A DNA stretch of 64,000 bases from Botryllus schlosseri (lineage: Eukaryota). Of this stretch, positions 369 through 55,285 are shown one piece after another. Position numbers and translations under genes: made by a program. Location of the stretch: NCBI GenBank assembly GCA_051294905.1, contig CM119371.1, positions 31,312,001 through 31,376,000 on the forward strand, given 5' to 3'. The notes beneath the pieces are model-generated. The model did no database searches. It was not told the origin of the DNA and saw only the letters and a list, made by a program, of their open reading frames with translations. Position 1 is the first letter of the stretch. Each line of letters opens with the position of its first letter.

Positions 369-487
369 TACAGAGGCTGATGATATTGCTAACGGGGTGT
401 AGTGCATGCAAAATAATAAAATTGTATCATTCGATGTAACCAACGTTATTGACTGAAATGCGGATGGCAATTGAGGTAATTCCAACT
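369..487 (-). CDS. Candidate downstream non-repeat exon (E)LELPQLPSAFQSITLVTSNDTILLFCMHYTPLAISSASV
   Basis: Open in the required phase 1, gtaag donor, weak ttag acceptor. Could join a phase-0 exon starting at 91 (ILLSNIYPFSAHVIGLTGRNDG...). No recognisable domain. Confidence 0.35.
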
Positions 488-853
488 CTAATTTTTTTCT
501 TAGATAGCGGTACTGACGGACTTAACCATAACGAGAACCTAAACAACAATTGAATGCAACAAACGTATACAAGACGGGTTCATTGTCAGTGACTCTCAAG
601 GTTCGAGAGGATTTTCTCAGTAGTAGATTTGATGACTTTAGATAATTGAATCGAAAAAAGTTGCCTCCGAATCACGAAACGTTCCATATTTATCATACGT
701 CGAGACCGAGCTAAATCCAATTCGAGTCAAATCAGGTCCCTGGAAAAATGACTCGAGTAATCCCAAAACTGCTGTCATGTCGATCACGTGTTGTGTAGCT
801 ATATACATCGATATACTAAAAAAAGCTTCTCATTGACACAAAAAAATTTTTAC

Positions 854-993
854 CATCACAAAGTATTTCTTCTTGTGAGACAAGAGTCAACGGTAAAACG
901 CAAATAAACGATTTCCCTCGGCCTCGACAAAACGTAGTGTCGCGATCATACGATCCGTTGGATCTCTTCAGCGGTGGTTCGTCTGATCCATCA
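854..993 (-). CDS. Module 8 exon B: DGSDEPPLKRSNGSYDRDTTFCRGRGKSFICVLPLTLVSQEEILCD
   Basis: ttaag acceptor, gtaaa donor, 140 nt. Confidence 0.9.
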
Positions 994-3900
994 CTTAACA
1001 TTTAGATACAGTGAATGTAAAGGGATAAGACTCTTATATAGTTCAATACCCAATCTATACCTACATGCAATCTGGTTTGCCATCACAGAAAGAAAATATT
1101 GGGATGCATTTCGCGCCATCAAAGCAGGAAAACTCATCGTCTTTGCATGACACACCTGTCAACACAAATGCACCAAAACCATATCATCATGTACTATAGT
1201 CATATTTGGTGACATAATTGTTGATATACAATGTTCTATCTAATTCTCTACTAGTTGCTGACGATTACCCCGGACGAGTGTCAGCCAAAAATATTCGGGT
1301 TCATTTCAATATGAATATACTATTCTATTATATGCTATGGTACAGGGGTCACCAACCTTTTTTGCAACCAAGAGCTACTTTTTGGTTACTGATTGAAGCG
1401 ACGGGTTACCATTTACTCCTGAAGTTTACCCGTGCCAGACTGAATGTCGGCTTCGATATTCATGGCACTTGGCAGGAATATTATCACATTGCGGTAAGAG
1501 AGTCATTCAAATCAAAACATATTATGTCAACTAACTAGCCAATAAGGATTTTAGGAAATCATGAATTCTTCGCACCATGTTACAACAACAGTGAACTCAA
1601 ATTTTAAAATAAATCTTGTCACGCTTTAGACTGGACGTCATGTTACCTGTTTCTGCATCAGCCAGTGGGATGCCTGGCATTGCACGTTATCAACTAGTGC
1701 GCTATACTCTGGTATGTAACTTGACACTGCAACTCTGAGTGAGTGTTCAAGATGTGCATTAGTCAGGCGTGTTCTGTGTTTGTTTTTGATGAAGTGCACG
1801 TGCGTAAAGGATGATTCAAAACGATAAGTTGAACTAAACAGGCACCAAAAGTACGCTGTAGCCTGGTGGGCTTTGAGGTGGAGGTCATTCGGCAGTGTTA
1901 CAATTTCAATCTCCAACTGTTCAGCATCCAGACATGACAGATTTCATTATACCGGACAGCAGCAACGATTACAGAAAGTTAGAGACATAGGTACTGAACT
2001 GCGTTGAGTACAAGAGAAACACGGTGTGTAAAAACACGCAATACGTAATTGACGTACAGATATAGAAAATCTGATAGTACTTCACGACTATCTGCTACCG
2101 AATTGTAATGTTTTTTACTACTTAGATATTGTCCTTGACGTCGAGCTACCATAACGGAGCCCTCCGCCATTTCAAGAAGACCGTCGATGGCATTCCTCAT
2201 GTCACCTGTATAGGCAGTGAGTCGTATCTTACGTCTTCGATATCTAGTGATTCTATTTCTTATTGTAATAGAGGATATTTGATATCATCATTGTAAGTGT
2301 TTATATATATATATGTATTGTCATTTTTAAGTTACATGTTAGTGTGATTTAAACAAGAATAGCTAAATCAATCAATTTATATATTTAAAATCTCACTGGT
2401 AATGATCTGACTAATATTGGTAAATGCTTCTATTCGATCTATTTTTGTAACAGGCTCGCGGGCTACTCATTTGGTTCTCGCGGGCTACCTGGGGCTCGCG
2501 GGCACCGCGTTGGTGTCCCCTGTTATAGTATATGAACAATGGTGTAGGCAGGCTACTTTTTGCTTGTTCAACGTGCCCACTTCCCAGTGTTGTCATAGAC
2601 TTTTCAACACAGAATTCCTCCAACGTGTGGTAAATGCATATGAAAGCTTCAGAATGATGGCAGCTATTGTGATACCTCATCAAACTAAACGTGGTCTCTC
2701 GTCAGTATAGCGAAGTACTTCTAATTTGTGGACTACTCAAGTATATTATGTGGCTTTTCACAGCGTGATGAGGTCGATACGTTTCAGATCACTTTCACTC
2801 ATACAGTTGCTTTGGAACGACAGGATCCCAAAGTGACCAATAGCTGCGAAAAATGCTCACGAAAAACTAATCGATGTCAAATTAACGATAGCAACAAATA
2901 ATTGTTCAACATTATGATAGACAGTTGCAGTGTTACATTCTGTCGAAACAGTGGTAACGAAGCCTACATCTCACCGTCGCAAAGTATTCCCGATAGCGGC
3001 TTACGACTCGCAGGTAACAAACAGACTAGTCGACCTTTTCCGGATCTCCAAGGCCCGCGACAAAAAGTAACATAGCGACTGTATGATGAATTGAAGTTCC
3101 TCAAAGGTGGTTCGTCCGACCCATCACTTAACATTAGAAAATCATCAGGTAATTGTGACTGGTTAGCATTTAGGTGTTTAAACTGTTTAGTGACGCCACC
3201 TCACATAAATCGCTTTCCCCCTGTCTTTTCTAAGTTTTGCTTGCACATACCAGGTATTGATGGAGTATTAGTAAGTCTCGAGAGTATCATATGCTTAGTG
3301 CCATCACTCATGCATTGTGACTACAGTGCAACGTCAACAGTGGAATTCTAATAGAACTGGGGTCATATTTCGGTTCAAAAAGCTCACTCATTTGAACGCA
3401 GTATTGTTGGGCTGCTAAGAGAATTCGCGGAGTCCAAGACGGGCTAGTAATCTCGCAGCATGTAGCTGCTGGCTAGGCATGTAGCAGTAAATGTAGAGAC
3501 TTAGAGACTCAATTCCTTTTTTTACAACCGTAGGAAAGCAATCTTCGAAGTAAAAAAATTCGAAAATCACCCTAATATTTTTCAATGTTTATGTTGAATT
3601 TCCTTTGCTGATGCCGCCTCATGCCAGTGAGTGGTGGGTAAAGTGCCTTTGAATGGTTTGTATCAAGTTGATGACGTTACTGTTGCATTGTTCCCAGTGT
3701 GGCACAAGGATTCATCAACTGGACTAGTTCTAAGAGGTCCCTGACAGGCCAGTCACGAAACTGTAACTATAAAATTATATTTTCTTCATAACCTCAGCTC
3801 TTATTTATGTCTTACGTCCTAATTTGGTCTTATTTTTTCTCTATGAAGTGGATTTTCATGCAACAACCGGTATACTAGATCGCAATATGAGGCCATGTCG

Positions 3901-6900
3901 TATTGATAACCTTTCTCAGTCACCAACTCTTCAGATTGCAATATGAAGGGATCCTAGCAATTACAAAAATGATCCTGAGTTCTGCGCTAGAACAAAGGTT
4001 ATGAATCACTAGTGTAGAACACGCCTAGATTCGCTTGCGAACATCCGAATTTTCAAGGATCTCATACCGAACAGGAACGTAAATTGAACGTTAGTACTAT
4101 TCTTGTTAGGCACTGCGAATAATCCATTTCCTATTATGGCAATTCTCGCCACAAAGAAGTTTCATTATCATGGTCACCACGACGAGAGAATTCTGTCAAG
4201 ATTTTCGGGAGATAATTACGCAACAGATAGGCTACCCGAGTAAATATATGACGAGAAAGCATAGCCGATATGCAAGGAAGCGATTACTATATCACCTGCT
4301 TACCTGCAATCAGGATTTCCGTTGCAAAACATCCAGTTCGGGATACATTGCGAGCCATCCGAGCATAGGAACTCGTCAGTTTCGCATGACGAACCTTGAT
4401 AAAGTTTGATACATATTAAGGACGAGTTCTTTAACCTTGGTTAAATTTACCCTATTAGTGATTGGCAGGGCGATTATTTTTGACATGCCAAAAAAAGTCA
4501 AAATTTTGTCAAAATTGTTTCCAAAGTCCAAATATTTTTGCAACCTGCATTTCGTTTGCATCTTAGATTTTGCACGGTCGGTGAAGTTATCATTTGATAT
4601 CTTACGGCTTGTAGCCTACTTCATAGGCATACCGCTGTAGACGGCCCATTGTCTGCTCATTGTGAATCATAAACATTCAAATGAAACAGATAGCTTGACA
4701 TGGTTTATGTTCTCATATCAAGAAGAGCATGATGTAAAATTGTGATGTAGACACCATTGTCAGAATGAAGCAACACGGTGTGTCTGCAGCAGTGTACGCA
4801 CAACTTCAGTGTTGTCAACCAACAACTGTTGCTGTTGAACGTTCTTTCTCCATTCTTGGCAAGCTACTTAGTAAGGACTGACCCTTTCTATCCGAGAATG
4901 TAGGAAAGTTTCATTCATTGTACTAATACAAATTTTAATGATTTCTACAATAATACGTGATGTAACTGATTGAATTCTTCATAGGGCCTGATTTCGTTAA
5001 ATTGAAGTTTTTTAATGTAAACATTTGCCAGCTTTCGAGTCATTAAAGTTTTTCAAGCCAAGCTATTTCGAAAGGACAGATATTTCCAACCAGAAATGAC
5101 GATACGTAGTACAATTCTAACATTATGTGGAAAACACCTAATTTGCATACGTTAGGTCAAAATTTGGTCAAAATTCAGTTTTTTAGGGTCGAAAAATGTC
5201 AAAATTATAATTTTTTAGGTCGAAATCTTCCGTTATTTAGGTCAAAAAAATCGCCCTCGTGATACTACTACTTACCATTTACAGCACTAAAATAAACCAA
5301 TTTGACAATACTTAGCTGTTAGGACAGAACATGAAGGAAGAATAGAAGTTGTCTTGCGAAAACTCGTTTTCGTCGTCCTACGCTCTACTCAACATGAAAG
5401 AATTGATTTGGCAGAAACCACCACGCCATGGACTACGAGAATCTAGCACAGCAGTGTCATGGATAGAGGATCCGGGAATACTCTTTCGATTAAATTGAAA
5501 ACATCCTACCGTCACAAATATCATCTTGAAGCGACACGAGATTAGGTGGTAGCTCGCAGATTGAACGCACATGATCAGTGCTAACATAACGAGCTCTTCG
5601 TCGACAAAATGTAGATTTCTGCACGTAATCATAGCTGGAGTTTCTCAAAGGTGGTTCGTCGGACCCGTCACTAAAATATGATTTGGTCTTATTTTTTCCC
5701 CATCAAGTGGATTTCCATGCAACAACCGGTATACTTGATGGCAATATGAGGCCATGGCGAAATGAATAACACTGGTCGAGATGATGTTTGTTTTTAGGCC
5801 GAAATTATGACTATTAAGTCAATTTCTGTACGCTGATTGCGAATATGAGTCGCTCCTTTCCTATCAAGTCAAGATTTTTTATAATCTGTGAGTTAAAATT
5901 TTGCATTTCAGTGCTAAAGACAGCCTGTTCTGTGACGTATTCCTTGTTGTTGGGTCATAGCTATAGCCATTGTGACGTCATCAGAGTGGGTTAAATTACT
6001 CAAGTAGAAGTAGCGGCGTCAATTTCTACTCAAGTAAAAGTACAAGTAACTATTTAGAAGTATGTAAAAAATAAGTATTCTAGGCCCAGTTTTTAAAAGC
6101 AGTTTCAATTAAATAATATTTTCTTCCTTCCAAAACATCACAAGACTGCGATACAATGAAACGATGGGAAGTCGTCAAAACGACTTGGCATAGTCTTTGA
6201 AATCAGTCACATAACTGCGCCTAGGCGATGTAAAGAAGATGAATTCACAGCACACTGAATGAAATAAAGGGACATTGAGGCTGTGAAGCATTTGAAAACA
6301 AAAATCCTTAGCATTTGGAGAAATCCTCATGGACGTGGAAAAGATTGCTACTTTTGCTCATTTTTTTGGGATTCAATATCAAAAATCAACATAAAATTCA
6401 ATATCCAATTTGACTTGCGAAATACGACCGATTCCTCATGGGCCAGATGTCACAATTCCATTGCCTTCAAAATTTTACCAACAGTTGAAGAAGATTCTCG
6501 CGGTGAAGAGTCTTTGTCTGAAGAATGTTCTCGGCATCAGTGTGATGGTGATCAGCAGCAACATAAAGTTGAATCAAGCTAAACCAAATACCATTGCCAT
6601 AAATTCGAATTTGCCAAATTAATCTGCTCTTATTGTAGGTTCCAGAATAAAAGCCAAACATATACTTGGCACTGATACCACTGTTGCTTGGTATATGCAT
6701 ATATGAATCGTGATAGTGATTACACACGGTTCTTTGCCTCCGAACCGTCTTCAGTCTATTGTGTCGATGTTCAAGGTCTCATAGAGACATTACGAACTGT
6801 GAATTGCACCACTTTTGCACCTCTTCTCTTATGCCTAAAAGCTGTTTTGTCGCACAATGCAAATCAATGTGCTTCTATCCATGTAGCTGGTACAACTGGC

Positions 6901-9900
6901 ATCAAGGAGAATTACGAGAATATGAAAATTTTGATTTCAAATTTGGAATATAGTACACAAACGTGTAAAGTTTCCGTTGAATTTGAACTCATAAATATGC
7001 TACTGGTTCAACTGTCTAGAACTACAAGGTATCCTTGTTTTATGTGTGAATGGGACAGTAAAAATCATTGAATTAAACGTAAGTGGCCGATGAGGAAGTA
7101 TATTACACCAGGCGTTAAATTGTTTCAGAGCCTGCTCTTATCGACACATCTAACGTTGTATTTCCACTATTAAACATTACACTGGATATGATGAAAAAGT
7201 TTTTAAAAGCTCTTATCAAAGAGAGTGCACGTTCTAAATACATTTACGAAAGGTGACCTAACCTGAGTTAATTCAGTAGAGGGTGTATTTGTAGGACCTC
7301 AAATCAGAACACTCAGCAAATCCCATTTTTTCTTATTAGGTATGAAGGCGGATTTGGAAAAAAATACCTGACCCTCTTTCATTGAAGTTGCATCTAAATT
7401 TCTTGGAAATACCAAGGATCCTGACTATTTGGAGGATTTAGTTTAAGATATTACCACCTCATATCCAATAAAGTAAGTTGAGAGCTTTGTAGGATGTGTT
7501 TGGTATCATATACGGATCGAAACGGGCATAAACACCGTCAATACGGCCGTTTTTGAGCAAAATTTTTATTCGAGTTTTGCGAAAAATAGTGACGTGATGA
7601 GTGAATTCGGACGGAAAATTCGGAATCAGCATCGTCAAATTAGGCACACTCAATTATTCGTTCTAAAACACACAAAAAAAGTTGAAAAATGTCGACCATT
7701 GTAACCTTTCTTAGTCACCAGCTCCCCAGATTGCAATATGAAAGGATCCTATAGCAATTACAAAAAAGATTCCGAGTTCTGCGCTGAAACAAAGGTTATG
7801 AATCACTGGTTTAGAACATGCCAAGATTCGCTTGCGAACTTCCGAATTTTCAAAGATCGCATACCGAACAGGAACGTGAATTCGTACTATTCTTGTTAGG
7901 CGCTGTAGATAATCCATTTGCTATTATGGCAATTCTCGCCACAAAGAACTTTCATTATCATTATCACTACGACGAGAGCATTCTGTCAAGATGTTGGGAG
8001 ATAAATAGGTGAGATGTGGTACTGATGGATCACTGGGACCAAAAATACTTGAAAAACTCTATATGATAATTCTATGATTACACTCCGTGAGCTTGTATAC
8101 AATTGCCTGCTGGCAAAATCTTTCCTCACATACAAAAAAATTCGACGTGCGCGAGCTATGGGGTCTCTGACAGATGTTTTCTGTTTTGGGTGGTGTAAAC
8201 TAAATTTCGATCGACGCATACATTTTTGTCTGTAACCTTCAACACGAACAAACCAGCAATCATTTTCAGAGTGAAGTGTAGAGCTTGTATCAGGCTATAT
8301 AATGGCACATACTATTTTATTCAAGACCTTCCTTGGGTGGAATTTTTTTCGATTCATGTATAAAATTCGTAGGGTGGGGACCGATGATACAATAGCCAAA
8401 TCAGGCAAAATAATCAAGCATACTGATCATGGAACAACTGAAACATGCCCACGTACAGAAAATCTTTATGTATAATAATTTCATGTGATGTTTTATCGCT
8501 ATACCGAGGTATTTGAAAGTCAAAATGTCGATTTTCGGTCAATATGTATGTACCCTCAAATTTTAAGTTCGAGCCTAAATCGAAACGTGATTTTATGGCA
8601 ACATTTAAGTTATTATTTATTCTATTTTTGACGGTTGCGACCAAACATTCTTCTTTGGCTTGCTGTAGCTTAGATTATAATACACAGCACGAAACGTTGT
8701 CACATCTGCATTTTTGAGAGTATGTCTCATAGTTCCTCGGGTCGTGTGCCATTGGACCCACCAGGTGGGGACCGGTGATACGTTCGAGCAACACATTTTG
8801 AACGCTCATAAATGTTCTTTAAAAAGACGGATATTCATGTATGTATGCACGATAGGTATCTCTTGTATCAAGGTGCTGAGTCAGCAAAATATATGCTGTT
8901 TTCGGCTGAACATTTTGAGACCAGCGATCATTTTCAAATTTAGATCCATCGGTACCACATCTCCCCAACGCTACAGTTAGGCTACCCGAGTGAATATATT
9001 ACGAGAAAGCAAAGCTGCCTTGTAAGGAAGCGATTACTACATTAACTGCTTACCTGCAATCAGGATTTCCATTGCAAAACATCCAGTTCGGGATACATTG
9101 CGAGCCATCCGAGCATGGGAACTCGTCAGTTTTGCATGACGAACCTTGATCGAATTTGATACATATTAAGGACGAGTTCTTTACCTTGGTTAAATTTACC
9201 CTATTATTGAGAGGTTATTAATACTTTCCATTTACAGCAATCAAATAAACCAATTCGACAATACTTAGCTCTTAGAACAGAACCTAAAGGAAAAAGAGAA
9301 GTTGTCTTGCGAAAACTCTGTCTCATTGTCCTACACTCTACTCAACATGAAAGAATTGATTTGGCAGAAACCACCACGCCATGGACTACGAGATTCTAGC
9401 ACAGCAGTGTCATTGATGGCGGATTCGGGAAAACTCTTTCGGTTGAATTGAAAACTTCCTACCGTCACAAATATCATCTTGAAGCGTCACGAGATTAGAT
9501 GGTAGTTCGCAGATTGAACGCACATGAACAGTACTATGATCTCTTTGTCGACAAAATGTAGCGTTCGGCGCGTAAGCATAGCTGGAGTTTTTCAATGGTG
9601 GTTCGTCGGACCCGTCACTGAAACATAGCATTTACAAACTAAATCAACGATTTTTTCATCGTCTCTGTTATTTAGACAATTTTGTCAGATCGATGAATGC
9701 ATCGCAGTACATATTCAAGATATCGTACCTAAAGGTATAATTGCCACAGTCCTGAAGGATAGATGAGGATGAGTTTTTTATCACCGTCCTATTTGGTTTA
9801 AAACTTTTGATTGATTTTTAAACATGTTAATCGGTGCGGTGTGGTGTATTTCAATTATACTTTCACATACCAGAGAACTAGCTTACCTGGTAAGTAGTGT

Positions 9901-12900
9901 TGGTTATGCTGAATTCTAATAGCAAACAAGCTAGACCTACCGAGTGTGAGCTGGTATATTGTCAAGGCCGGAATGAAAATTCCCTGCACAGCAGCAGAGA
10001 CACGGTTTATACTAGATTGCAGAATACCAAGTGCACAATAACGCAAAAGTTGGAACACTAACGTTTGATGTCTAGCATAATCATCAATCATATTACAACA
10101 GCCTAATTTAACTGCATACATGGCGTGGAATACGTGGGAGTGAATGACTAGTACATGGAATATTTCTCGTAGACCGAGGCATGGGCTGGACTGGATATCC
10201 GGCCGAAGTCGACACGGATCCGCATACGTATTTTTAAAACGGTCAGAATCGCTGTTCAGGCTATATGAGAATTACCATCGTGACTACCAACCACACGTCC
10301 GTATAGCCTTCCATACAAAACTGTTTTCGTCAAGAAACCTGTAATTTTTTATCGGCATGCCTATTTTGTTGCAATGTCGATACATGACCTGAACGATTGC
10401 CGCATGCCCGTATGATGTAATGTGTTTACCCGAAATAGGTAGTCTTAGATCAGGGGTGGGCAAACTACGGCCCACGAGAGTCTAAAGAAACCGTAAAAAT
10501 ATTGATAAAATGCGTACTAACAATCGAATTAATGCAGGGACTTGATTATACTTTTTCTTAGTATATTTCACCATGATAATTCCAAGGCAGTGGTACTGAA
10601 ACGGGGGGGGGGGGCTTGGGGACGTGAAAGCAACTGATGGGGGGGGGGACGAAGCTGAGCTCAACTGATATCGTTTTCGCGCCCGGCGCGATTTACATCC
10701 AATACATAATTATTGCTCTATATTTAGTCTGAATTTTATATTTAAAAATTTCTCATCCACAGTCGTAACCTTCCCTTCCATCAAACTATCCGTCAGGTTT
10801 GCTAGCATCCTGGGTGCGTTTTGTGATATGACGATAAGGGGGGCGCGAAATTGTTCACCATTACAAGGGGAGGGGCGTGTCTTAAAAAGTTTGAGAACCA
10901 CGTGGTAGAAAAGTACTGTTCTAAGGTAAATACTTCCTATATTATTTTTTATGTTTAATTTCTGGCACGACAGCTCCATGTCAATGCCGACGCAGTTTGA
11001 AAGGTTTCAACTGCTTGACATCAGAGAAATCCTAAACGAGATTGACATAATTCGGATCACGAGTGTGATTTCAGATTGGCCACCCCAGTTATAATTATTT
11101 CTGTGATGTGCTTGTAAAAAACGATTCGCGCATATCTTAGGTGGATTCGTTTTCTGTATGCGTAAAATTGGGGTATTTATATTTTATCTACACATATTGA
11201 AAACGTGTTTGAAGCTAACATGGTTATGATGCTGTGAGCATTGTGTGTCCTGGAACTGAACCAAAAGTGTAATTAGTAAATCTATGAACAGATCTCTGCT
11301 CACAGATTTAAATTTCAGTCATGTTCTAAAAATCTGGACAACCGACTTTGATCTCTATATTTTGACAAATTGGTTATTGAGGTCGACTAGCCCATGAAAT
11401 CTCGCAACTAAATGTTTCTGAAGCGTGTACGATATAATCAAAGCAGTGTTAAACACTTATTATCTCCATGTCCTCGCTACCAATATTGCGTTTCGGTTTA
11501 TAATCTGGATTTTATATAGTGCGGCCCGCGAATGGATTCAGATATTGAATGCGGCCCGCGAGTTCTAAAGTTTGCCCACCCCTGTCTTAGATTGTCATAT
11601 CGGAGTTTTTTTGATCGGATATTGATCATTTCATGAATCCGGCTCATGAAATACCTTCGTGTTACAAACGTTCAAAAATTTGAAATTGTATGGCTCGGGA
11701 CGTGCTATTTTAAGAAATATTTACATGCGTGTCTGTCTTTGGTTGGGATTGCTACGTGCACTCAACAAACATCTTGGTGTTGAAGTAGGTCAAACTAAAT
11801 CCAGTGAATGTGACATTACAGCTTGACACTTGCTATTCAGGTAGCAATTGAAACAATAAATCAAGTGTCAGTGCCCAGCTCAATGAAGTAAAATTTACAT
11901 TACAGTTGCAGACTTTGAATACATGGAAATAATTGGGAATATTATTGTTCTTGGTTACATTTTAGGTATAGCGCTACCATACGTCCTCTTTTTAGAGGAT
12001 TTGTCATCTTTTTCCAATAAATTGAAAGTGTCCTCGGAGGACGCCTAAATGTCCTCTTTTTTTGGAATTTGCGAATAAAAACTCGACTCCGTCGCAGCGA
12101 ACGTCAGAGTTTCGTAAAAAACGGGTAAAACGGAGCTGAGCCATAATGATGACCTATTTTTTTAGTCAACACAGTACTATAGGTCAAATTTTTTCGCAAC
12201 AACCAGTCTTCTTCTCCGGTGCCTGAGCTTTCAGAATTTTACAAAAGAATCTTCATTTTCTTATCTCAAAATATGGTAACGCTAATGTTAGGTGTTATAT
12301 GTATATGCAGCGATGGACTGATTCAAATGGGAGACAAATCTAAATAAAGTGATATTATCATTGCATACCGACAATCTTTCTTTCCATTGCAGAAGTTACC
12401 ACGTGCAATGCAAGCAGAGCCATCGGAACATGGATATTCTGTCTTTAGGCAAGTCGGATCTGAATGAAATGCAACACGTAACCTAAGAAATTGAAGTTGA
12501 GTATTGTAATTACCAAAGGCTGACTAAGGATTAACCGGTGCCAATTTAATATCAATCGAGGTATATTTAGTTAATAAAGGAATGCATACACCGCTACCTA
12601 TCGGCTCCTCTTCTCCGTCTCATCCGTACAAGCGGTGTCTCCGAAAAGCCTAGAATGGGACCATGATACAATTCGGCAGTTACGGAATAAAAAATGAACA
12701 AAACTAGTCCGGTGTAGTAGTAGTCGATAGAGAGAAAGAGAGAGAGAGAGAGAGAGAGTCTTTATTTTGATCCAATCAAAATACATAACAACCGACGGCA
12801 ATGATGGCGGTACAGAAGAAATGCATGCACAGTATTCGGTATTAGATAGGAATGATCGATACGACCTTGAGGGTAAACTAGTCACCCGCATCGAACAGGT

Positions 12901-48900: not shown

Positions 48901-51900
48901 AATTTTGAACGATGCATCTGTAACGTCGTCGTCAATATTAATAATGCATGGAAATATGAATTGCTGGGCTTTTGACACCGAGCAACATTTTCTCTAAGAT
49001 CAGGTTATATGTATAACTTCAGAAGAAACTATCGTGGTATCATTTTAAGCTTCCACGATTCGTTACAACAACTGTTCTTCGAAAAATATGACACATCGAT
49101 CTTCCATAACAATACCGTTCCAGTAGTAATTGCGTTCATAATGAAAGATGTCGCGGGCCGCAAAATAATAGTCTGCGGGCCGCGGGTTGAGAACCCCTGT
49201 CCTAGATGGTAACTTCGGGACTGAGTAGTAGCTGTGATTGTCCAGTATTGTCACTAGCATAGGCAGTCAGTCAACAGTCTCCATTCCAGTGTCATTTGGG
49301 ATTGGTTTGCCATCCCCGTGCAAAATGAATGGAAACTGTGGGTCTAGCTAATATTTAATTTCTTCGGAGATGATTCTACTATTAACTAATAAAGAGCGTG
49401 AAATTATTACCTTGAAAAACGTTCGATAGAAGACTTTATTCAACTTCACGACGAAGAAATTGACAATTATTTTAAGAAACTCGAGTCTTTCAGATGTTTT
49501 TCTTGAACATCAGGATTCTCAGAGGAAAAAGCAACCTAGTTTCATTGCCGCAGAAACTTTTATCAGCACATTGGTTGTCACCAGCTACAAGGCTTAATAT
49601 TCTATTGCATTAGTTGAGGAGTTTTCTGGCCATATCACAAAGGACAAGGAGCAACTGCAATTTGCATTTGTAGTTTTTGCTGACCAACGCGAAAAAGCTC
49701 CCTAACACTCTGAAACTGGCCTAACTGGGCAACGGCAATTGCTATAAGTCATATTGACATCCCAGCCGGAATCCAGGAATCCAGGCTTAAACGTTGGTCA
49801 GAGAGCAGCTACAGAAGTGACTATATGTGCTTTACACTGCAAATGGATAGAATTTCGGATCCATTGAGCCACCTCCAAACATTAATGGAAATCAATTAAA
49901 TGTCACACAGTTTATTTTTGTAGTCAAAAGTAACATTTTGGCAGGGTCAGACCAACAACTTTCCAAAATTCGTTTTCTAAGGACCACCCTATTGCCCATC
50001 TATAACCTCCTAACATTTTCGTCTACGATTCGATACATTTGATTTTGTTGCTCCATAATCTCGCAAAATGTCCACTAGAGGGTAACATCGCTCGCATTCA
50101 GAATAACGACATAGGGCTTGGCAAAATAATGACGCTATTACGAGGAAACGCCTACCGGCAATCGGCTTTTCCATCGCAAAATTCCGCGTTCATCACACAC
50201 TCAGATCCATCGAAGCAAGCAAAGGTGTCTTTAGAACAGCGCGGACCTGGAATATATGCATCAATGACTCGAGTCTACTTCTATGCGGGTTTTAATTATG
50301 TAGTCGTTCAATTGCTAACGCAAGTCATAGGAATAGGACGTTGTATATTTTGTCCTCGATGTTTTTGCGACATATGCACGAACTCATGATACAAACACAC
50401 ACAATAAGTGTGCATAATGCATATGCATACCCGCCATGCTATTCCTGTATTCTTGTGAGTATTACTAACCAGATTTTTGGTCTTACCCGGCCGGGGATCG
50501 AATCAACGACCTACCGATCAAGAAGTCGGACGCTCTACCATTACGCAATCTTGTCTATCCATAACATGGGAACTGCGTGGACAGTCGAAGACAATTTGTA
50601 AGCATGATATGATGTAATAGGGGCGCAAACTTGAGATTGAACGACAGCAAAAATCTTTATCCCTTACTTTTGCAAAATCCTTCTTTATCTTCTGTAAACT
50701 GAGTTGTGACTTCGCAAAGTCGATTGTCTTTGCGACATATGATGTTATCTGTGTTGTTTGAAACGCTGCTGTCGCGATATAGCTCGTCTGAGCCGTCTCT
50801 GAACGATTAAAGAAAAATAGAAAAAATATTGATACGCCACTTTCGTATATTATGACGTAGCCAGAACGGCATTGGTGGTGTTTTATAGTTGTCATGAATT
50901 CATATTAATTCTACATTTAGAAATATAATTCAGTTGTTGTTGTTGCTGCGGCGCATGACTTGTATGTCTGATAAAGAGATTTTTGCCAATTTTTCGCATT
51001 CAGACCACGGCTTCGTAAGCAGAATAGACCGTATCTTTATATATCGTGATCGATCCGGGCATGGCATAGCTTGATCAGACAGAGAGAGAGAGAGAGAGAA
51101 AGTACTTTAGTTTCTCCCGCGTGCGGTGCTGCCACAGTATATGGTGGCTCTGTGCTTCGTGTTATCATTTGGTTGAAGTACCGTGCATACCCTACATACC
51201 ATGCCTTTTCTGCGCCAATCATGTTCATGCTTGGAAACGGCAGTTGTTTTGATCGCGAGTGGCTGTGTTCTGCGTCCTGGTTTCGGGTACGGTATCATTG
51301 TTGAACTACAGTGCCTTCTTGGGACTTAATTTATCGAACATCATTCACGACAATAAGAAAACTTCGACACGACTATAGTTATGGAAAGTCCGTATGAAAT
51401 ATTATATTCACAGTACTTGATCGATTCAGGCATATCGATGAGCCAAATGGGCTTCGTGCGACTTTGATCACGTAACTGGTTGCGCATAGCAAACCGATCG
51501 ACTGGTTAACAAATTACTCTCTTTTTGCATCTGTGCTGTCGGTAACAGTTATAATACTGAAACCTAAGTTTCGTTTTAGGGTTGCAAACGTATAAAAATC
51601 TCGCAGCGAAAGTCACGTGAGACTTGAATATGCTATATGTGTCCGCTAATAGCTACGTGTCGCATTACTTCCGTTGCAAAGTATGGATAGGTATACACGG
51701 GATGTAATGACTCGATTAATAATTTTCTGAGAGTGAATTTATGAACTTTACCAGAAGCACAAGCTTGCCCACCGGAGTATATTTGCTGCGAGCAATCACT
51801 CACTTGGTCGAAGTCGTGCAAATTAGACTAATGATTGATATACCCACTGACAGTTCTTTATCCCGTCGCAAAAGAAAGCCTTTGGCACGCACTGCGATCC

Positions 51901-54900
51901 GTCCGCACATGGAAATTCGTGGTATCGACACGTCGAACCTGAAGAAATATACACAGCATTGATGAAATCCCCCACCTGCGCGATCTTACGTAGTTGCATC
52001 AAATGCAAGTACGAAATGGATGCCGTACATCGGCAATGCAGCCTTAATATATTTCGAACTAATAATTTTTTGGAACGTTTGTGGTTAATTCGATCACAAG
52101 AGCAAGATGTAAACGTAAGTGGTACAGGGAAGGTGCGAACCTCCGAAAGGGTCTGGTTCATTAGAACGTGAACCTTTTTGAATGGTTCCATGTGAACGCG
52201 AACGAGAACATTAACCTATGACGTCACGTGGCGTCATATTAATTTTTCAACGCTACACTTCCGTATGGACAGTACACGATACCTAGCGGCGACTCAGACC
52301 ACATTCTGCCAAAGTACTCAAGTACATGGTGACTTTTAGTCATCACCAAATGTATCAACTACTGAAATAATAATACGATAAAATCAATATCTTCCTTCCC
52401 TTTGCCAACAATTTTGCCGAGGACTCGCAAGGCAATGTAAGCTTACGCCTGAACAATCAGGACCACACCTGACAATGTATAGGCGTCAAACTATTGCTAT
52501 TAATTGATATTGATCAGAGTGACAATCTGGTTTCTATACCGACGGATATTACGTCAAAAAAAAGTTGTACATTGCCCAACACCCCCATCGGCCGGGTTGT
52601 TGTAATTCCTGATACAATAAATATATTAAATCAAAGTAGATTCTGTACGCTTTTTCCGTTTTTTTTTTTGGTTGAACATATTATACATCAATTTCGTTGA
52701 TGTCACTAATTGATTGAATAAGCACAATTCGCTGATTAACTTTACGACGATCTGCGCTGAACTAGTATTGTTGTTTGTGATATTCATGGTGTCTTTCGAC
52801 TACATTGTTCCTAAACCAGGCCGACATTCTTTAACATGAGTCCATATTTAACAGCATGCAGAAGGCACGTTCCATTTCTAGGCTTTTTTATGACAACGCC
52901 TACGCGGATCATATGACGAGGAGGAGCAAAGATAAACCCCCAACACGTCGTATGGGATTCTCTAGACGGACTTGGAACCCCAACCTATTGGTGCTTTGGT
53001 GGATACCCCACGAAGTATGTCTCATTCTTGATGTTGTGTGATTGCGGACCAACTCCAATGCAGAGAGTAACTAAATATTCACAAGCGGGAAGATGAACAT
53101 TTTGAGAAAAGTTTTCTAACAAAGCAAATACAAATTTTGAAATTGGCCAAGTGCAGGGTAGTTTGGTGCTGAATTTCTTTTCATGCTGCAAGCGCCATAG
53201 AGAGAATTTAAAAATGCAAATAATTTGAAAAAGAATGTTGGATGAAGTGAAAAATTGTGATAGATGAAACGGGTTCCCGGTGCAGAACCTACCAGGGTTC
53301 GTTTGTGAAATCGAACATCCAAATTTCTGAGGTTCACACAAAGCTCACGTTCACACTATCCCTTGTAAGTGGTGTTCTTATGCAAATGCGTAGCACGTTA
53401 ATGAGCCGTGCTATAAGTCGAAATCTCGGTATTACTAACACATTTTCATCGTGATGTAAAATGATGATATATGTTTCAAAACCATGAATAAGAAACAACC
53501 CGCGAACGGATCCTGACTACACCCCATTCGAATTTACCCATACAACTACAAATCCCATATAAACATTGGAATCAAATAGATCTGATTCTCTTTATAAATT
53601 TTTCATAATCTCCCCGAAGTACATTACATGAATTCCAAATCATTCAAAGTGATTTATACATATGGCGAACGTCCGTTTAGAAGTCATCATATTATTATTC
53701 ATTATACGATTGCCACAAACCTGTTGGCCTACATCTTCGGTAGGGTTATATCAAGATATCGTATGTCACTCATGCATCGCGGCAATAGTAAACATATGAT
53801 CAGACTCACCATCACAAAGCTCGTTCTCTTGTGCACGCAGCTGAGATGGCAATATGCAGAGCCTCGGAGTAAATGAATCCTTCCCTCTGCGGCATACAGT
53901 CGTATCATCGCTATAGTTGGCATTGACAGTCCAATAAAGTTCATCTGATCCATCGCTGTTGAAGAAAAGCATATCATTTTCACCACCATGTGCTGTCATA
54001 GCATAGTTCGGGGTTGTACAACTCGTGGCCCGCGATCGCAAAACTTGTCGAAGGTAATATGCGTGCATACGCCGCACGCTTTCGCTTTAGTTGATCACGA
54101 TTGTTGCTGTTCTCAGCGCGCCTTTGCGGTAAAGTACGACTGAAAAGGCAATCGCGTAATTGCAAGAAAAAGTTTCTTAAAAGAAACAACTGAAAGATCA
54201 AGATCGAACATCAAGGGATAAATATTATTTCATGGGGCGAGGTGAATGTTAGGTTGGAACATCGCACTAATTCGTTTCGTCACACCGTACATAGTGCATT
54301 GTGTATTGCTTTGTCTTAGAAGGTAAAAATAATATAAACGACTATTTTATATGGTGAGATGTCGTACTTGATTTGTAACGGTTCCGAAATCGTCAGATCG
54401 TGGACCTTGCTAATACAGGAAGACATATGTACGGCCCGCCGTCTCGGTAACCTCTATCGAAACCGCTTGTCAAATAGGTTGCACAGTAGACACCCATGGT
54501 GTGGTTCAGGGGTCACCAACGCGATGCCCGCGAGCTACCGAGCCCATGAGAACCAAATTGGTCGGCCGCAGTAGCAGTAGCAAATATTCAAATGTAAGAA
54601 TTGAAAGACAAAGCGGAGAAGGGTTTCATATGAGCAGCAGTTTAACATGGGTAATTCTACCCTAAGGGGCATACGAATTCAGTTTTCGATCGGGTCGTTG
54701 CTCTACTTCGCCGACGCGGAGGTTTTAACGGGAATCTACCTAATATTCCCTATAGTCTCGACGCGGAGATTGGCGCTTCGGCGCGCAGTGCGGAAACGCA
54801 ACTGAGCCGGGAGACGCTGGTGTAAGTCCCGGTGAATGAGAGTTTCTGTTTTCGGTAAGGGATGGAAACCTGGCCCGCTGCTCTGAATGTCTAATTGAAG

Positions 54901-55285
54901 AAACCCAACTGACCACGGACAAACGGCGAGAGTAACTGGTTGCCCTGTCGCAATAATCAGTACCCGTGAAGTAGCACTTGGTTTCAAAGAGGTTGAGGAC
55001 CTCCAGTATATTTGGTAACGCTCACCTGCAATCAGTTGAGCCATCGCAATATTTCTGCATCGGAATACACCTTGCCTCGTCCGTGCACGCAAATTGGTTG
55101 TCTGGACATATCAAGCCTGTATCGAAGGTATTGTAATGCTCACCATGACAAAAATAAACAAGATTTAATTGAAGACTAACCTTCACAGCAAGTGATTAAT
55201 ACCATGGCTGCAGTTCCAATGTAAACAAGAATCATCATCCATTTTGTAGTTGAGATTTGGATCTTTTGTGCACGTGCCATTTATG
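854..55285 (-). CDS. Multi-exon gene (partial, envelope coordinates): predicted extracellular protein with 8 tandem extended LDLa-like modules
   Basis: 17 exons traced by hand, all with AG/GT boundaries and compatible phases. A exons are phase 1->2 (91 nt), B exons phase 2->1. The spliced frame has no stop. Start and stop exons not identified. Confidence 0.9.
1065..1155 (-). CDS. Module 8 exon A (LDLa): GVSCKDDEFSCFDGAKCIPIFSFCDGKPDCI
   Basis: gacag acceptor, gtagg donor, 91 nt; 71-nt intron to exon B. Confidence 0.9.
1343..2522 (-). mobile_element. Charlie/GTF2IRD2-type hAT deletion derivative
   Basis: TIRs CAGGGGTCACCAAC...GTTGGTGTCCCCTG; degenerate TSD ctatggta/ttatagta; ORF 1638..1916 (FSSTYRFESSF...KNKHRTRLTNAHL) resembles the hAT C-terminal dimerisation region. 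Confidence 0.85.
2975..3126 (-). CDS. Module 7 exon B: DGSDEPPLRNFNSSYSRYVTFCRGPWRSGKGRLVCLLPASRKPLSGILCD
   Basis: ttaag acceptor, gtgag donor, 152 nt. Confidence 0.9.
4304..4394 (-). CDS. Module 7 exon A (LDLa): GSSCETDEFLCSDGSQCIPNWMFCNGNPDCS
   Basis: tcaag acceptor, gtaag donor, 91 nt; 3 nt differences from module 6 exon A. Confidence 0.9.
4466..5258 (+). mobile_element. Non-autonomous hAT element (same family as 14393-17058)
   Basis: TIRs CAGGGCGATT...AATCGCCCTC; relic PTTVAVERSFSILGKLL near 4818-4870; absent from the paralogous site near 9205. Confidence 0.8.
5510..5670 (-). CDS. Module 6 exon B: DGSDEPPLRNSSYDYVQKSTFCRRRARYVSTDHVRSICELPPNLVSLQDDICD
   Basis: tttag acceptor, gtagg donor, 161 nt. 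Confidence 0.9.
5770..7701 (+). mobile_element. Degenerate Chapaev3-like (CMC) DNA transposon
   Basis: TIRs CACTGGTCGA/TCGACCATTG, 3-bp TSD TAA, empty site at ~3907. Relic motifs WRNP..KDCYFC, LKAVLSHN, KENYEN, YPCFMCEWDS, EGVFVGPQIR. Confidence 0.85.
8008..8966. mobile_element. TIR-bounded non-autonomous DNA element (possibly PIF/Harbinger)
   Basis: TIRs GGTGAGATGTGGTACTGATGGATC / GATCCATCGGTACCACATCTCCCC; absent from the paralogous site near 4215. Confidence 0.75.
9054..9144 (-). CDS. Module 6 exon A (LDLa): GSSCKTDEFPCSDGSQCIPNWMFCNGNPDCS
   Basis: tcaag acceptor, gtaag donor, 91 nt. Confidence 0.9.
9463..9617 (-). CDS. Module 5 exon B: DGSDEPPLKNSSYAYAPNATFCRQRDHSTVHVRSICELPSNLVTLQDDICD
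   Basis: ttcag acceptor, gtagg donor, 155 nt. Confidence 0.9.
10451..11584. mobile_element. Charlie-like hAT MITE
   Basis: TIR CAGGGGTGGGCAAACT, perfect 8-bp TSD TCTTAGAT. Confidence 0.9.
11969..12284. mobile_element. hAT MITE of the TAG(G/C)GTTACCATA family
   Basis: TIRs tagcgctaccata/tatggtaacgcta with GTCCTC subterminal repeats; inverted relative of 39726-40148. Confidence 0.7.
12369..12459 (-). CDS. Module 5 exon A (LDLa): DPTCLKTEYPCSDGSACIARGNFCNGKKDCR
   Basis: ttcag acceptor, gtatg donor, 91 nt. Confidence 0.9.
14977..16805 (-). mobile_element. hATm-like element nested in 14393-17058
   Basis: TIRs TAGGGTTATGACTA/TAGTCGTAACCCTA, perfect TSD ATGTCCAC. Minus-strand relic ICDTVASVDTGRQNGVV...PCQHHII near 16180-16300. 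Confidence 0.85.
15356..15778. mobile_element. hAT MITE nested in 14977-16805
   Basis: TIR TAGAGCCCGACCGAT, TSD atatattc/gtatattc, CCGATA subterminal repeats. Confidence 0.85.
20074..20219 (-). CDS. Module 4 exon B: DGSDELYYNHSIARSNNLTACSGRGGYYGDIKNICMVTTEAAEILRCR
   Basis: tttag acceptor, gtaaa donor, 146 nt; separated from its exon A by a ~20-kb TE-filled intron. Confidence 0.88.
20252..20518. mobile_element. hAT MITE with AAGTA repeats
   Basis: TIRs CACAGGTGGTCA/TGACCACCTCTG, perfect TSD TACGGAAT. Confidence 0.85.
21899..23518. mobile_element. CMC/EnSpm-like non-autonomous element inserted in the outer 5' LTR
   Basis: TIRs CCCAGGTAGCACGCC/GGCGTGCTAGCTGGG, 2-bp TSD TT; the 3' LTR shows the empty site. 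Confidence 0.8.
24572..25510. mobile_element. hAT MITE of the TAGGGATGGTGTGAAC family, copy 1
   Basis: TIR TAGGGATGGTGTGAAC, TSD ctccgtac/ctctgtac. Confidence 0.88.
26385..26402 (+). promoter_or_regulatory. Primer-binding site, tRNA-Leu type
   Basis: TGGTGTCAGAAGTCGGAT, 2 nt after the 5' LTR; close to the complement of a tRNA-Leu 3' end as I recall it. Confidence 0.75.
26433..27623 (+). CDS. gag: Gag of the inner Gypsy, frameshifted at the protease DTGA motif
   Basis: 396-aa ORF; coiled-coil N-terminus, W..YLQRF motif, knuckles CSRCFIDHQRRDC and CQKCGRKGHIKPAC. Confidence 0.9.
   Translation: MESGILKLLEKQQEMMAEQRAQRKEDMEQQNARHREDLAQQRAQHDEAMAKVMAGLEHQKNQHKEEMAQLTQRMSPGSSTSEATAPKFDSFVKSKEKWDHYLQRFNHHLAIYGISNMEKKRACLLSWFGPETYSLLRNMFGAADVSAQSFDALTEKLSTHFKDFIHVQAARYEFYNCKMQPGQSYADWIAALRGISKDCNFICSRDGCDQSYVDELMRDLINKVTPHADVRRHCLTQTNPSLDDVLKVAATYARTLETDRVIQGESSGKDTSIVNKMTGSYQKGKKPSKSNQGNFPERLKSCSRCFIDHQRRDCQYRHSVCQKCGRKGHIKPACMSTKPSITQQVTSVNFCSVPLLSFDIDQLYRRVGNQLWINSSINGIPLPTQWTLVHPPPWWD
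27738..30259. mobile_element. hAT-type element with GTAATC subterminal arrays, inserted in the inner protease
   Basis: TIR CAGACATGGGGT, perfect TSD GCAGGTGG. Confidence 0.9.
29263..29746 (-). mobile_element. Charlie-like MITE carrying a 28S rDNA-derived fragment (copy 1)
   Basis: TIRs CAGGGGTCACCAAC/GTTGATGATCCCTG, TSD tactggag/tactagag. Interior GACCCATGTTCAACTGCTGCTCATATGAAACC...ATATTTGCTAC is antisense LSU rRNA. Confidence 0.85.
30268..33156 (+). pseudogene. pol: pol of the inner Gypsy (PR end, RT, RNase H, integrase) with stops and frameshifts
   Basis: WAAPIV, VRICGDFK, FIDDI, YTDAC, LHEGHWG, IVTDGGPQF, SNGEAE spread across ORFs 30264-33156. Confidence 0.93.
34068..34653. mobile_element. 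hAT MITE with GACTCGAGTC arrays
   Basis: TIRs CAGGGTTGTAA/TTACAACTCTG, perfect TSD CACGGCAG. Confidence 0.9.
35895..37792. mobile_element. hAT-type element inserted in the outer RNase H
   Basis: TIRs TAGGGTAAGTTTTTGCA/TGCAAAAAAAATTGCCCTA, perfect TSD CTGATCAG. pol reads FTLVTDQ|RSVAFMF across it. Confidence 0.9.
36491..37497. mobile_element. hAT MITE with GACTTGACTCGAGTC arrays, nested in 35895-37792
   Basis: TIRs CAGTGTTGGGAT/ATCCCATCACTG, perfect TSD GGATGAGG; about three 37-bp tandem units at 37305-37437. Confidence 0.9.
39726..40148. mobile_element. hAT MITE of the TAGG(A/G)TTACCATA family
   Basis: TIRs taggattaccata/tatggtaacctta, GAGGACA repeats. Confidence 0.75.
40185..40275 (-). 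CDS. Module 4 exon A (LDLa): GSTCGYAEFACSDGSQCLSNSMFCDGIVQCN
   Basis: tatag acceptor, gtgcg donor, 91 nt. Confidence 0.88.
40605..41520. mobile_element. Charlie-like hAT MITE
   Basis: TIR CAGTGGTCGGG, perfect TSD GTGTAGAT; a related interrupted copy starts near 56867. Confidence 0.88.
42219..42391 (-). CDS. Module 3 exon B: DKSDEPPLRYSNISYDPNTKFCHGGGHDSYYRYQPPVVTWICVLEPSLEPYQNSLCF
   Basis: tttag acceptor, gtgag donor, 173 nt. Confidence 0.9.
42533..42958. mobile_element. Charlie-like hAT MITE
   Basis: TIR CAGTGGTTCCCAAC, TSD ctgtaagc/atgtaacc. Confidence 0.8.
44553..45830 (+). mobile_element. hAT-like element with a GC-rich transposase relic
   Basis: TIRs CAGGC(T/C)TGTTTATTT, TSD tgtattgc/tatattgc. 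Relic frames FRRQRNLIQ*MGSARPKFVVARLLSMKRVASWL and ATFEADISKIKWE...SLEGILQAK. Confidence 0.8.
46565..47293. mobile_element. Foldback-like element with ~205-bp inverted arms
   Basis: 46565-46768 is the reverse complement of about 47091-47293; flanked by AT on both sides. Confidence 0.8.
48021..49199 (-). mobile_element. Charlie-type hAT derivative
   Basis: TIR CAGGGGTTCTCAA, perfect TSD TCCTAGAT, minus-strand relic SLALDESTD near 48655-48682. Confidence 0.88.
50156..50246 (-). CDS. Module 3 exon A (LDLa): SPRCSKDTFACFDGSECVMNAEFCDGKADCR
   Basis: tccag acceptor, gtagg donor, 91 nt. Confidence 0.9.
50474..50550 (-). mobile_element. tRNA-derived SINE head fragment
   Basis: Minus strand TGGTAGAGCGTCC...GGTCGTTGATTCGATCCCCGGCCGGGT has A-box-like and B-box-like motifs. 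Confidence 0.6.
50668..50798 (-). CDS. Module 2 exon B: DGSDELYRDSSVSNNTDNIICRKDNRLCEVTTQFTEDKEGFCK
   Basis: ttcag acceptor, gtaag donor, 131 nt; not in the ORF track. Confidence 0.9.
51848..51938 (-). CDS. Module 2 exon A (LDLa): GSTCRYHEFPCADGSQCVPKAFFCDGIKNCQ
   Basis: ttcag acceptor, gtggg donor, 91 nt. Confidence 0.9.
52125..53364. mobile_element. Older copy 3 of the TAGGGATGGTGTGAAC MITE family
   Basis: Colinear with 25994-26139 plus 33449-34983; flanked by GTAAGTGGT on both sides. Confidence 0.78.
53810..53955 (-). CDS. Module 1 exon B: DGSDELYWTVNANYSDDTTVCRRGKDSFTPRLCILPSQLRAQENELCD
   Basis: aacag acceptor, gtgag donor, 146 nt; lies inside ORF 53766..54077. Confidence 0.9.
54507..55005 (+). 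mobile_element. Charlie-like MITE carrying a 28S rDNA-derived fragment (copy 2)
   Basis: Left TIR CAGGGGTCACCAAC, degenerate right TIR. 54571-54862 reads GTAGCAAATATTCAAA...GGAGAAGGGTTTCATATGAGCAGCAGTTTAACATGGGT...GCGGAGATTGGCGC...CAGTGCGGAAACGC, an LSU rRNA core segment. Confidence 0.85.
55026..55116 (-). CDS. Module 1 exon A (LDLa): GLICPDNQFACTDEARCIPMQKYCDGSTDCS
   Basis: tacag acceptor, gtgag donor, 91 nt, LDLa Cys1-5 spacing. Confidence 0.9.
55203..55285 (-). CDS. Upstream non-repeat Cys-rich exon INGTCTKDPNLNYKMDDDSCLHWNCSH(G)
   Basis: ccttag acceptor, gtatt donor, 83 nt, phase 2->1. An 86-nt intron joins it in frame to module 1 exon A. Three Cys and an NGT sequon. Confidence 0.65.

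Follow-up and report, generated by a model that had tools for sequence, protein, structure and literature searches.

Receptors that join LDLa modules to a seven-transmembrane (7TM) core of the rhodopsin class are the closest described relatives of the gene discussed here. The relaxin receptors RXFP1 and RXFP2 and the GRL101 receptor of Lymnaea combine LDLa with a 7TM part of the delta group, as this gene appears to do, and they also have a hormone-binding leucine-rich repeat (LRR) domain. The account in PMC2396169 quotes the LDLa module as necessary for the activation of RXFP1 and RXFP2 and describes, in Ciona, the LDLRR-GPCRs, a set of 14 G-protein-coupled receptors (GPCRs) with 1–10 LDL-A repeats, no LRRs, and transmembrane (TM) regions resembling those of the relaxin/INSL3 receptors. 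Most of these repeats are given there as classical ones with six cysteines, the expressed sequence tags of the receptors as coming mainly from blood cells, and the LGR/LDLRR-type GPCRs reported for Ciona as numbering 32 (PMC2396169). Kamesh, Aradhyam & Manoj (2008; PMC2396169) present the LDLRR-GPCRs as a lineage-specific innovation. The locus examined here lies in a 64,000-nucleotide (nt) window of the Botryllus schlosseri genome (assembly GCA_051294905.1, contig CM119371.1, positions 31,312,001 to 31,376,000), the window being the whole stretch of DNA that was analyzed. On its minus strand, positions 854–55280 hold what is, with a probability of about 0.8, the 5' part of a gene of ~118 kb for an orphan ascidian LDLRR-GPCR of the kind named 'GRL101-like'. 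The window itself would contribute a signal-peptide exon and the first eight modules of the ectodomain.

The predicted receptor shares with the LDLRR-GPCRs of Ciona a TM5 with the EFGYY...VC[LM]P motif, N-terminal LDL-A repeats, the absence of LRRs, and a lineage-specific expansion. The differences lie in the ectodomain and in the size of the family. Ciona receptors carry 1–10 repeats that mostly have six cysteines, whereas this gene has at least 10 consecutive modules with eight. The loop within the corresponding Ciona module is 8 residues long, compared with 13–16 residues and a glycosylation sequon here, and each module of the window gene is split over two exons, in contrast to the repeats in the Ciona paper. 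Finally, the family is far larger in Botryllus, where the TM5 exon has 75 or more matches, against 14–30 genes in Ciona.

Seventeen exons in the window

Two types of exon alternate strictly along the window. Type A follows the pattern C-x6-C-x5-C-x6-C-[DN]G-x3-C, while type B follows D[GK]SDE-x15/16-C-x6..19-C-x11/13-C. Applied strictly, each of the two patterns occurs eight times on the minus strand and never on the plus strand, and a looser six-frame scan also finds the A pattern eight times and D-x-S-D-E eight times, on the minus strand only. These 16 exons and a signal exon splice together into a single frame of 2032 nt, or 677 codons with no stop. AG precedes each of the 16 internal exons and GT follows each of the 17. 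The A exons share a length of 91 nt (8/8), entering in phase 1 and exiting in phase 2; the B exons measure 131–173 nt and exit in phase 1, and this 1/2 alternation of phases is kept throughout. The preliminary description of this locus, made from the letters of the DNA, had proposed eight A and eight B exons in strict alternation with GT-AG ends and in-frame splicing, and scripted splicing reproduces all of it. The introns differ greatly in length: A8-B8 (window 994–1064, minus strand) is 71 nt and the one between exon 1 and A1 is 64 nt, while others in the gene reach 7.6–20 kb.

The spliced open reading frame (ORF) contains 66 cysteines, eight in each of the eight modules and two in the signal exon. 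A module spans 70–84 residues from its first to its last cysteine, or the 74–88 residues originally proposed when the linker is counted, and each of the seven linkers between modules is exactly 4 residues long. The probability that this is a chance pattern, or a pseudo-coding array derived from repeats with no gene behind it, is negligible. Such an origin is refuted by the 8 and 8 strict matches against 0 and 0 on the other strand, the uniform phases and splice sites, Pfam matches above the cut-off, and homologous annotated proteins in another species. The 17 exons are real and not a product of chance.

Probable continuation into a seven-transmembrane receptor

Exon B8 ends on a phase-1 donor, which means that the gene continues below window position 1. 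The preliminary description regarded the eight modules as a self-contained 55-kb gene extending over 854–55285; this extent did not survive, as modules and TM exons continue past the window and the low end had been set by the window edge. Beyond that edge, two further modules of the A+B type would come first, along with one surplus A exon; a short B would close the series, and LDLa-like blocks would then lead to TM1–TM7, which include an NPxxY motif, and to a brief tail. The nearest of these exons, A9 (1.9 kb past the low end of the window) and B9 (4.3 kb), are followed on the minus strand by A10, A12 and the short terminal B12; the splice sites of all five are intact.

The 7TM half was located through P0127, a 1322-residue protein named 'G-protein coupled receptor GRL101-like [Styela clava]', within the 314 kb around the window that the analysis covered. 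A tblastn search with P0127 places a juxtamembrane block (X1), TM2/3, TM5–TM6, and TM7 with the motif NPLLY in order on the strand of the window exons (Table 1). At lower stringency the search also recovers TM4, four further LDLa-like blocks and the TM1 region; in all, some seven juxtamembrane blocks of the LDLa-like kind separate the terminal short B from TM1. The TM7 frame reaches a stop 20 codons past the last matched residue, and the gene would span ~118 kb from the ATG at 31367280 to a stop at about 31249435. A more distant paralogue, 40–75 kb downstream, keeps 14 of the 15 candidate blocks in the same order, at E values of 1e-6 to 9e-46. By collinearity with P0127, with a second protein, P0013, and with three paralogues, the tandem LDL-A repeats are predicted to lie on the same polypeptide as the 7TM part. 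The signal-peptide and 7TM exons that the preliminary description had suggested looking for are thus present, the former as a signal-like exon 1 in the window and the latter downstream of it.

Several lines of evidence agree on a rhodopsin-class 7TM like that of the relaxin/INSL3 receptors. The first is the series of TM1–TM7 blocks. The second is the comparison of single TM exons with solved receptors, where collinear matches are found to LHCGR (TM2/3, E 0.0034), TSHR (TM5, E 0.015) and RXFP1 (TM7, E 0.18), and LGR4 is matched as well (E within 0.003–0.18). The third is P0127, which scores 58.8 bits against Pfam 7tm_1 and whose TM part has its best match in relaxin receptor 1 (7tmw_R, E 2.4e-27), ahead of LHCGR, TSHR and FSHR. 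In receptors of the rhodopsin class, TM3 usually ends in E/D-R-Y/W. The end of TM3 here departs from this motif: the receptor and its paralogue read S-H-R-L, while the Styela relative has S-Y-R.

The LRR domain that accompanies LDLa in GRL101 and RXFP1/2 has no counterpart here. P0127 matches no LRR family in Pfam at E ≤0.01, a rough scan of the 118-kb span for the LRR consensus gives 1 isolated match on the gene strand, within an intron, and 0 on the other strand, and the juxtamembrane blocks are all LDLa-like. The absence of an LRR array points to the LDLRR-GPCR kind and not to the LRR-bearing type-C LGRs. Compared by eye, the Ciona sequences in supplement 1 of PMC2396169 carry the same juxtamembrane block, CF[QR]CL...CDG..DC.DL[ST]DECLC, and the same type of TM5. 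The link to the LDLa-rich GPCR ectodomains of ascidians, which the preliminary description had loosely drawn, is therefore borne out by both the Styela GRL101-like GPCR and the Ciona LDLRR-GPCRs. Of the 'secreted or cell-surface' protein first proposed, the cell-surface alternative has gained support from the downstream 7TM exons and the GPCR homologue, while the whole-gene extent that went with it has not stood.

A stand-alone protein made of modules only, either secreted or anchored, or a locus that mainly makes a secreted isoform, is quite improbable. Relatives of this form are known: P0001 (1122 residues), P0009 (794 residues) and P0013 (715 residues) each have a signal peptide and 7–13 modules with no 7TM, and the contigs behind P0009 and P0013 are short assemblies (3100 and 2316 nt), possibly of transcripts. 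However, B8 ends on a phase-1 donor with no stop, the same strand goes on with further modules, juxtamembrane blocks and TM exons, among which no new start exon was found, and each exon 1 of the array follows a TM7 exon. P0013 itself, found in a follow-up search, runs from its signal peptide through seven modules into LDLa-like blocks corresponding to the juxtamembrane block that precedes the 7TM of P0127, and it looks like a 5' fragment. The evidence favors an LDLRR-GPCR gene of which the window holds the front part.

Table 1. Exons of the window gene and downstream blocks matched by P0127 (window positions, or contig positions where marked C1).
Feature	Position	Strand	Evidence or remark
Exon 1, 100 nt: ATG and signal-peptide-like hydrophobic stretch	55181..55280	-	GT donor, phase-1 end; 79%-identical copy at same place in upstream paralogue
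A1, 91 nt: LDLa Cys1-Cys5	55026..55116	-	PF00057 30.8 bits, profile positions 3-28; AG/GT ends
B1, 146 nt: DGSDE, sequon loop, three Cys	53810..53955	-	B pattern, splice sites
A2, 91 nt	51848..51938	-	PF00057 30.0 bits
B2, 131 nt: shortest B, without LP motif	50668..50798	-	B pattern, splice sites
A3, 91 nt	50156..50246	-	PF00057 25.1 bits
B3, 173 nt: DKSDE, longest middle loop	42219..42391	-	Near-identical exon ORFs P0002 and P0004 in other sequencing runs
A4, 91 nt	40185..40275	-	PF00057 26.7 bits
B4, 146 nt	20074..20219	-	B pattern, splice sites
A5, 91 nt	12369..12459	-	PF00057 27.2 bits
B5, 155 nt	9463..9617	-	B pattern, splice sites
A6, 91 nt: near-duplicate of A7	9054..9144	-	PF00057 31.4 bits
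B6, 161 nt: near-duplicate of B5	5510..5670	-	B pattern, splice sites
A7, 91 nt	4304..4394	-	PF00057 31.3 bits
B7, 152 nt	2975..3126	-	B pattern, splice sites
A8, 91 nt	1065..1155	-	PF00057 29.3 bits
B8, 140 nt	854..993	-	B pattern, splice sites; phase-1 GT donor at end
X1 juxtamembrane block	C1 31290631..31290804	-	tblastn, E 3e-7
TM2/3	C1 31260792..31260977	-	tblastn, E 4e-8
TM5-TM6	C1 31250285..31250803	-	tblastn, E 2e-16
TM7 with NPLLY	C1 31249495..31249641	-	tblastn, E 1e-6

The eight-cysteine module

A comparison of the module with canonical LDLa, represented by PF00057 and by LDLR LA5 (PDB 1ajj), separates a conserved front from a new back. All eight A exons match Pfam Ldl_recept_a (PF00057) with 25.1–31.4 bits, above the cut-off of 24.1, over profile positions 1–28 of 37, which correspond to Cys1–Cys5. 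None of the B exons (0/8) matches any Pfam family beyond noise. The residues D, S, D and E and the three cysteines are nonetheless invariant across the eight B exons of the window, and among 29 B exons from the gene and its neighboring paralogues none of D1, D4 and E5 varies, while conservation of S3 is 90% or higher. These invariant residues, together with the Pfam matches of A, indicate that A plus the first five residues of B make up an LDLa module through its calcium-binding motif. The module shares with canonical LDLa the spacing of Cys1–Cys5, the D-x-S-D-E cluster, and the fold of the first 33–37 residues. The modules, which keep this calcium-cage motif, may bind calcium.

Beyond the acidic cluster the two diverge. 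In canonical LDLa, Cys6 comes 2–4 residues after D-x-S-D-E, which it does in none of the window modules (0/8). No cysteine stands within 12 residues after the acidic motif in any of the 8 window modules or 29 B exons; the canonical Cys6 site is empty, and the first cysteine after D-x-S/T-D-E follows 13–16 residues later in 29 of 29. This loop of 13–16 residues contains at least one N-x-S/T sequon in 28 of the 29 B exons, and the later segments contain none (0/29). The window modules therefore add to canonical LDLa a sequon-bearing loop and a hairpin-helix cap with three cysteines, and Pfam matches to LDLa stop short of the profile end, at position 28 for an A exon alone and at 34–35 of 37 for whole homologous proteins. 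The proposal of an LDLa variant that lacks Cys6 at its usual place and has three further cysteines is upheld by the Pfam matches of A, the empty site, and the invariant residues of B.

The fold was predicted with AlphaFold2 for an 82-residue module of P0001, a protein of Styela clava, using an alignment in which the window A and B exons enter as half-rows. The best model has a predicted local distance difference test score (pLDDT) of 86 and a predicted template-modeling score (pTM) of 0.71; the five models score 86, 85, 84, 57 and 49. It comprises two LDLa strands, then a hairpin of residues 50–54 and 62–66 and a helix of residues 67–76, with the three extra cysteines in strand 1 of the hairpin, in strand 2, and just after the helix. 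The structure that had been sought for the module, here predicted for the Styela homologue, is an LDLa fold with a hairpin-helix cap. Foldseek superimposes the first 33–37 residues of the model, from about residue 3 to residue 40, on solved LDLa modules at 0.6–1.1 Å (among them 1ajj at 0.8 Å, 2fcw_B at 0.6 Å, and 8ua4_R), and gives 0 matches in the PDB at E ≤0.001 for the whole module. VIA-align against 48,161 chains gives 25 matches with Z ≥2 and a best Z of 4.0; the 21 of these 25 that are listed are all LDLa modules or chains that contain LDLa. Most of the matches cover model residues 1–44 and a few extend to 57–67, as expected if a later cysteine replaces Cys6.

The topology of the model and these alignments suggest, tentatively, a disulfide pairing of 1–3, 2–5 and 4–X, in which the first extra cysteine would stand in for Cys6, with Y–Z stapling the hairpin to the helix. 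Window exon B8 modeled alone, on the alignment of 29 B exons, again forms this hairpin and helix, with a pLDDT of only 64; VIA-align finds no match with Z ≥2 for this model, which at such a pLDDT is not evidence of a new fold. The ESM Atlas returns generic LDLa clusters only, with scores ≤0.87. Nor does any described family span the whole A+B module in the Pfam, Foldseek or VIA-align comparisons, a point on which the preliminary description of a variant had been open to challenge. A literature search at the level of search listings found no account of an eight-cysteine LDLa module, and a tandem array of eight-cysteine, sequon-bearing LDLa variants appears to be undescribed so far as that search goes.

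Homologues of the module are found in Styela. A profile of the eight B exons, searched against 1.84 billion representative proteins at E ≤0.001, matches 12 proteins. The named ones are two uncharacterized Styela clava proteins, and the others are short single-exon ORFs and one 794-residue protein from assembled runs. P0001 (XP_077966781.1, uncharacterized, 1122 residues) matches the profile at E 8.9e-32. The eight-cysteine module occurs 13 times in P0001, 8 times in P0009, 7 times in P0013, twice in P0011 and 4 times in P0127, and PF00057 matches 14, 9 and 7 stretches in P0001, P0009 and P0013, respectively. P0001 and P0127 share the module with the window gene at identities of only about 30–45% to its exons. 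In P0127 the modules are joined to the same juxtamembrane block and 7TM, but they alternate with classical LDLa repeats and their last cysteine opens a further half LDLa; the model of P0001 includes no TM part. The databases searched contain no protein model for the window gene. Word-indexed searches with B6 against longer proteins (E ≤0.01) and with a 159-residue stretch of two P0013 modules (E ≤1e-6) return nothing, but their index is too coarse for this to bear on rarity.

The module is not confined to the stolidobranchs Botryllus and Styela. At least four Ciona receptors carry, by eye, one module of the form DG[ST]DE-x8-C-x8..12-C-[VI]LP-...-C. Its presence in Ciona, where it is single and has a short loop, implies that the extended module is old in ascidians.

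A tandem array and its proposed role

The gene stands in a large array of relatives. In the 495-Mb Botryllus schlosseri assembly, tblastn with B6 finds 43 B-type exons, 36 of them on the minus strand of the window's contig (C1) between 29.80 and 31.79 Mb and 7 on contig C29. The TM5 exon has at least 75 matches genome-wide at E ≤1e-5. Copies 90–94% identical to it lie at C1 31.133, 31.213, 31.386, 31.490 and 31.548 Mb, with the gene's own at 31.251 Mb, and at least six copies with ≥90% identity fall within 420 kb. The TM5 matches cluster on C1, C2, C3, C11, C14 and C16, a much larger expansion than the 32 receptors reported for Ciona. The second B-type array, at C29:119747-221841 (plus strand, 7 matches), lies beside A-type LDLa matches, and the five of these that are listed each have one in-frame TAA; decay or misassembly of a copy of the cluster may account for it.

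The upstream paralogue reveals the repeating unit. A copy of exon 1, absent from the 284-kb region first scanned and present in 30 kb further, lies at 31484169-31484270, is 79% identical, and stands 3.2 kb downstream of the TM7 exon of the preceding gene; A1, B1, A2, B2, A3 and B3 follow it in the same order as in the window gene. The position of exon 1 after a TM7 exon suggests that the unit consists of exon 1, modules, juxtamembrane blocks and 7TM, with the window as its front part. Compared with this paralogue, the window gene has one extra module: the pairs B5/A6 and B6/A7 closely resemble each other and correspond to a single pair in the paralogue. Window 4304–9617 (minus strand) is an internal tandem duplication of one B+A pair. 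The array paralogues are probably recent and changing by gain and loss of modules.

Such turnover raises the question of whether this copy has recently been silenced or is decaying with its window exons intact, so that it is no longer expressed or fails to yield a full-length mRNA in frame, which is unlikely. Ten exons compared with the upstream paralogue give a synonymous divergence (dS) of 0.257 and a nonsynonymous divergence (dN) of 0.107, a ratio of 0.42, and blocks that contain exons are 80–91% identical against 76–77% for blocks that are intron only. Both comparisons indicate purifying selection on the exons, although in B4 the nonsynonymous proportion (pN) is about equal to the synonymous one (pS). 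The 677 codons of the window and 14 further conserved blocks are free of stops, and no damage is seen at any splice site examined, those of A9, A10, A12, B9 and B12 among them. A possible sign of decay lies downstream. At C1:31303270-31305443, 6.6–8.7 kb past the low end of the window, A10 and A12 are neighbors, both with intact AG and GT. The loss of the stretch that corresponds to B10-A11-B11 in the paralogue leaves these two A exons in a row, and a B-like exon sought in the interval was not found. Skipping either A10 or A12 restores the frame, and the two may be mutually exclusive exons or a mark of early decay.

Expression bears on silencing as well. Four bulk RNA runs of the same species were aligned to window 300–20299, with 6–13% of each run read. 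Nearly all fits are partial (1377/1385, 456/456, 177/185 and 1935/1954 reads), mostly 95–99% alike, and the reads stack on intronic repeats at about 1.2–1.3, 13.0–14.3 and 17.0 kb. The preliminary description held that an absence of junction-spanning reads would speak against the gene. None was seen in these sub-sampled runs, which is weak evidence against it and, with the lack of reads on several exons, in line with a silenced copy. The Ciona relatives are expressed mostly in blood cells, which bulk runs perhaps under-sample; with this and the sub-sampling, expression is unproven and not disproven.

The large introns are filled with retrotransposons, which would also suit a decaying copy. In the 19,965-nt A4-B4 intron, window 25447–33156 (plus strand) contains a string of ORFs whose domains (reverse transcriptase, RNase H and integrase zinc-binding) point to the remnant of a long-terminal-repeat retrotransposon. 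A short peptide pattern repeats at 26235 and 33286, ~7 kb apart, and may mark terminal repeats; the GC content rises to 0.42–0.45 over window 22–36 kb. In the B4-A5 intron, window 12598–13539 (minus strand) is a 313-residue ORF with a reverse-transcriptase domain. Reads near 13.0–14.3 kb reach about 57x per strand (run X7); as nearly all are partial and 95–99% alike, their probable source is other copies of the repeat.

A number of observations weigh against an intact LDLRR-GPCR gene with the ectodomain described above. No transcript or protein of Botryllus schlosseri links the window exons to the 7TM exons, a link that is drawn from collinearity with the paralogues and from the Styela model. 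The single TM exons, which are too short, fall below the Pfam 7tm_1 threshold, and a transcript with both A10 and A12, adjacent with no B between them, is out of frame. P0001, P0009 and P0013 have no 7TM part, and secreted forms may exist. In all four RNA runs, the bins with B7, A6 with B5, and most of B8 have zero depth, and of the eight RNA joints listed over window 300–20299 none matches a predicted intron (0/8). As for the module, its disulfide pairing is deduced from the model, two of the five AlphaFold models score only 57 and 49, and the model is of the module of a Styela homologue and not of the window's own spliced module.

A mechanism may be proposed for the receptor, with much less assurance than its identification. 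Each module would hold the LDLa calcium cage, followed by a 13–16-residue loop that nearly always bears an N-glycosylation sequon instead of the two-to-four-residue spacer, and then by the hairpin and helix with their three cysteines, the first of which would pair with Cys4 while the other two staple hairpin to helix. With linkers of 4 residues, the chain of modules would make a stiff stalk that bears glycans and a series of acidic pockets for binding. An extracellular ligand that is large or multivalent, and probably basic, could be caught by this stalk, and the signal passed on to the relaxin-receptor-like 7TM core, which would thereby be activated.

A broader conjecture is possible, if doubtful. 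The eight-cysteine unit might be a distinct, undescribed extracellular domain, in which an LDLa calcium cage is fused to a loop that always bears an N-glycan and to a hairpin-helix cap stapled by a disulfide. It would have been single-copy in ancestral ascidian LDLRR-GPCRs and multiplied to stiff arrays of 10–13 modules in stolidobranchs. Its carriers would be receptors of a large tandem array that evolves by duplication and deletion of modules. A recognition receptor that is diversifying would be expected to evolve in this way; one example would be a hemocyte receptor for microbes or non-self that signals via G proteins.

A gene spread over 118 kb in exons of 91–173 nt is a warning for annotation. 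The LDLRR-GPCRs have remained orphans since their description in 2008 and are among the largest ascidian-specific GPCR expansions. The locus presented here indicates that, in one branch of this family, the entire ectodomain is built from a modified LDLa unit to which a conserved glycosylation loop and a further cap, closed by a disulfide, have been added. This branch is expanding in a tandem array, and its module offers a concrete unit for expression, disulfide mapping, and use as ligand bait.

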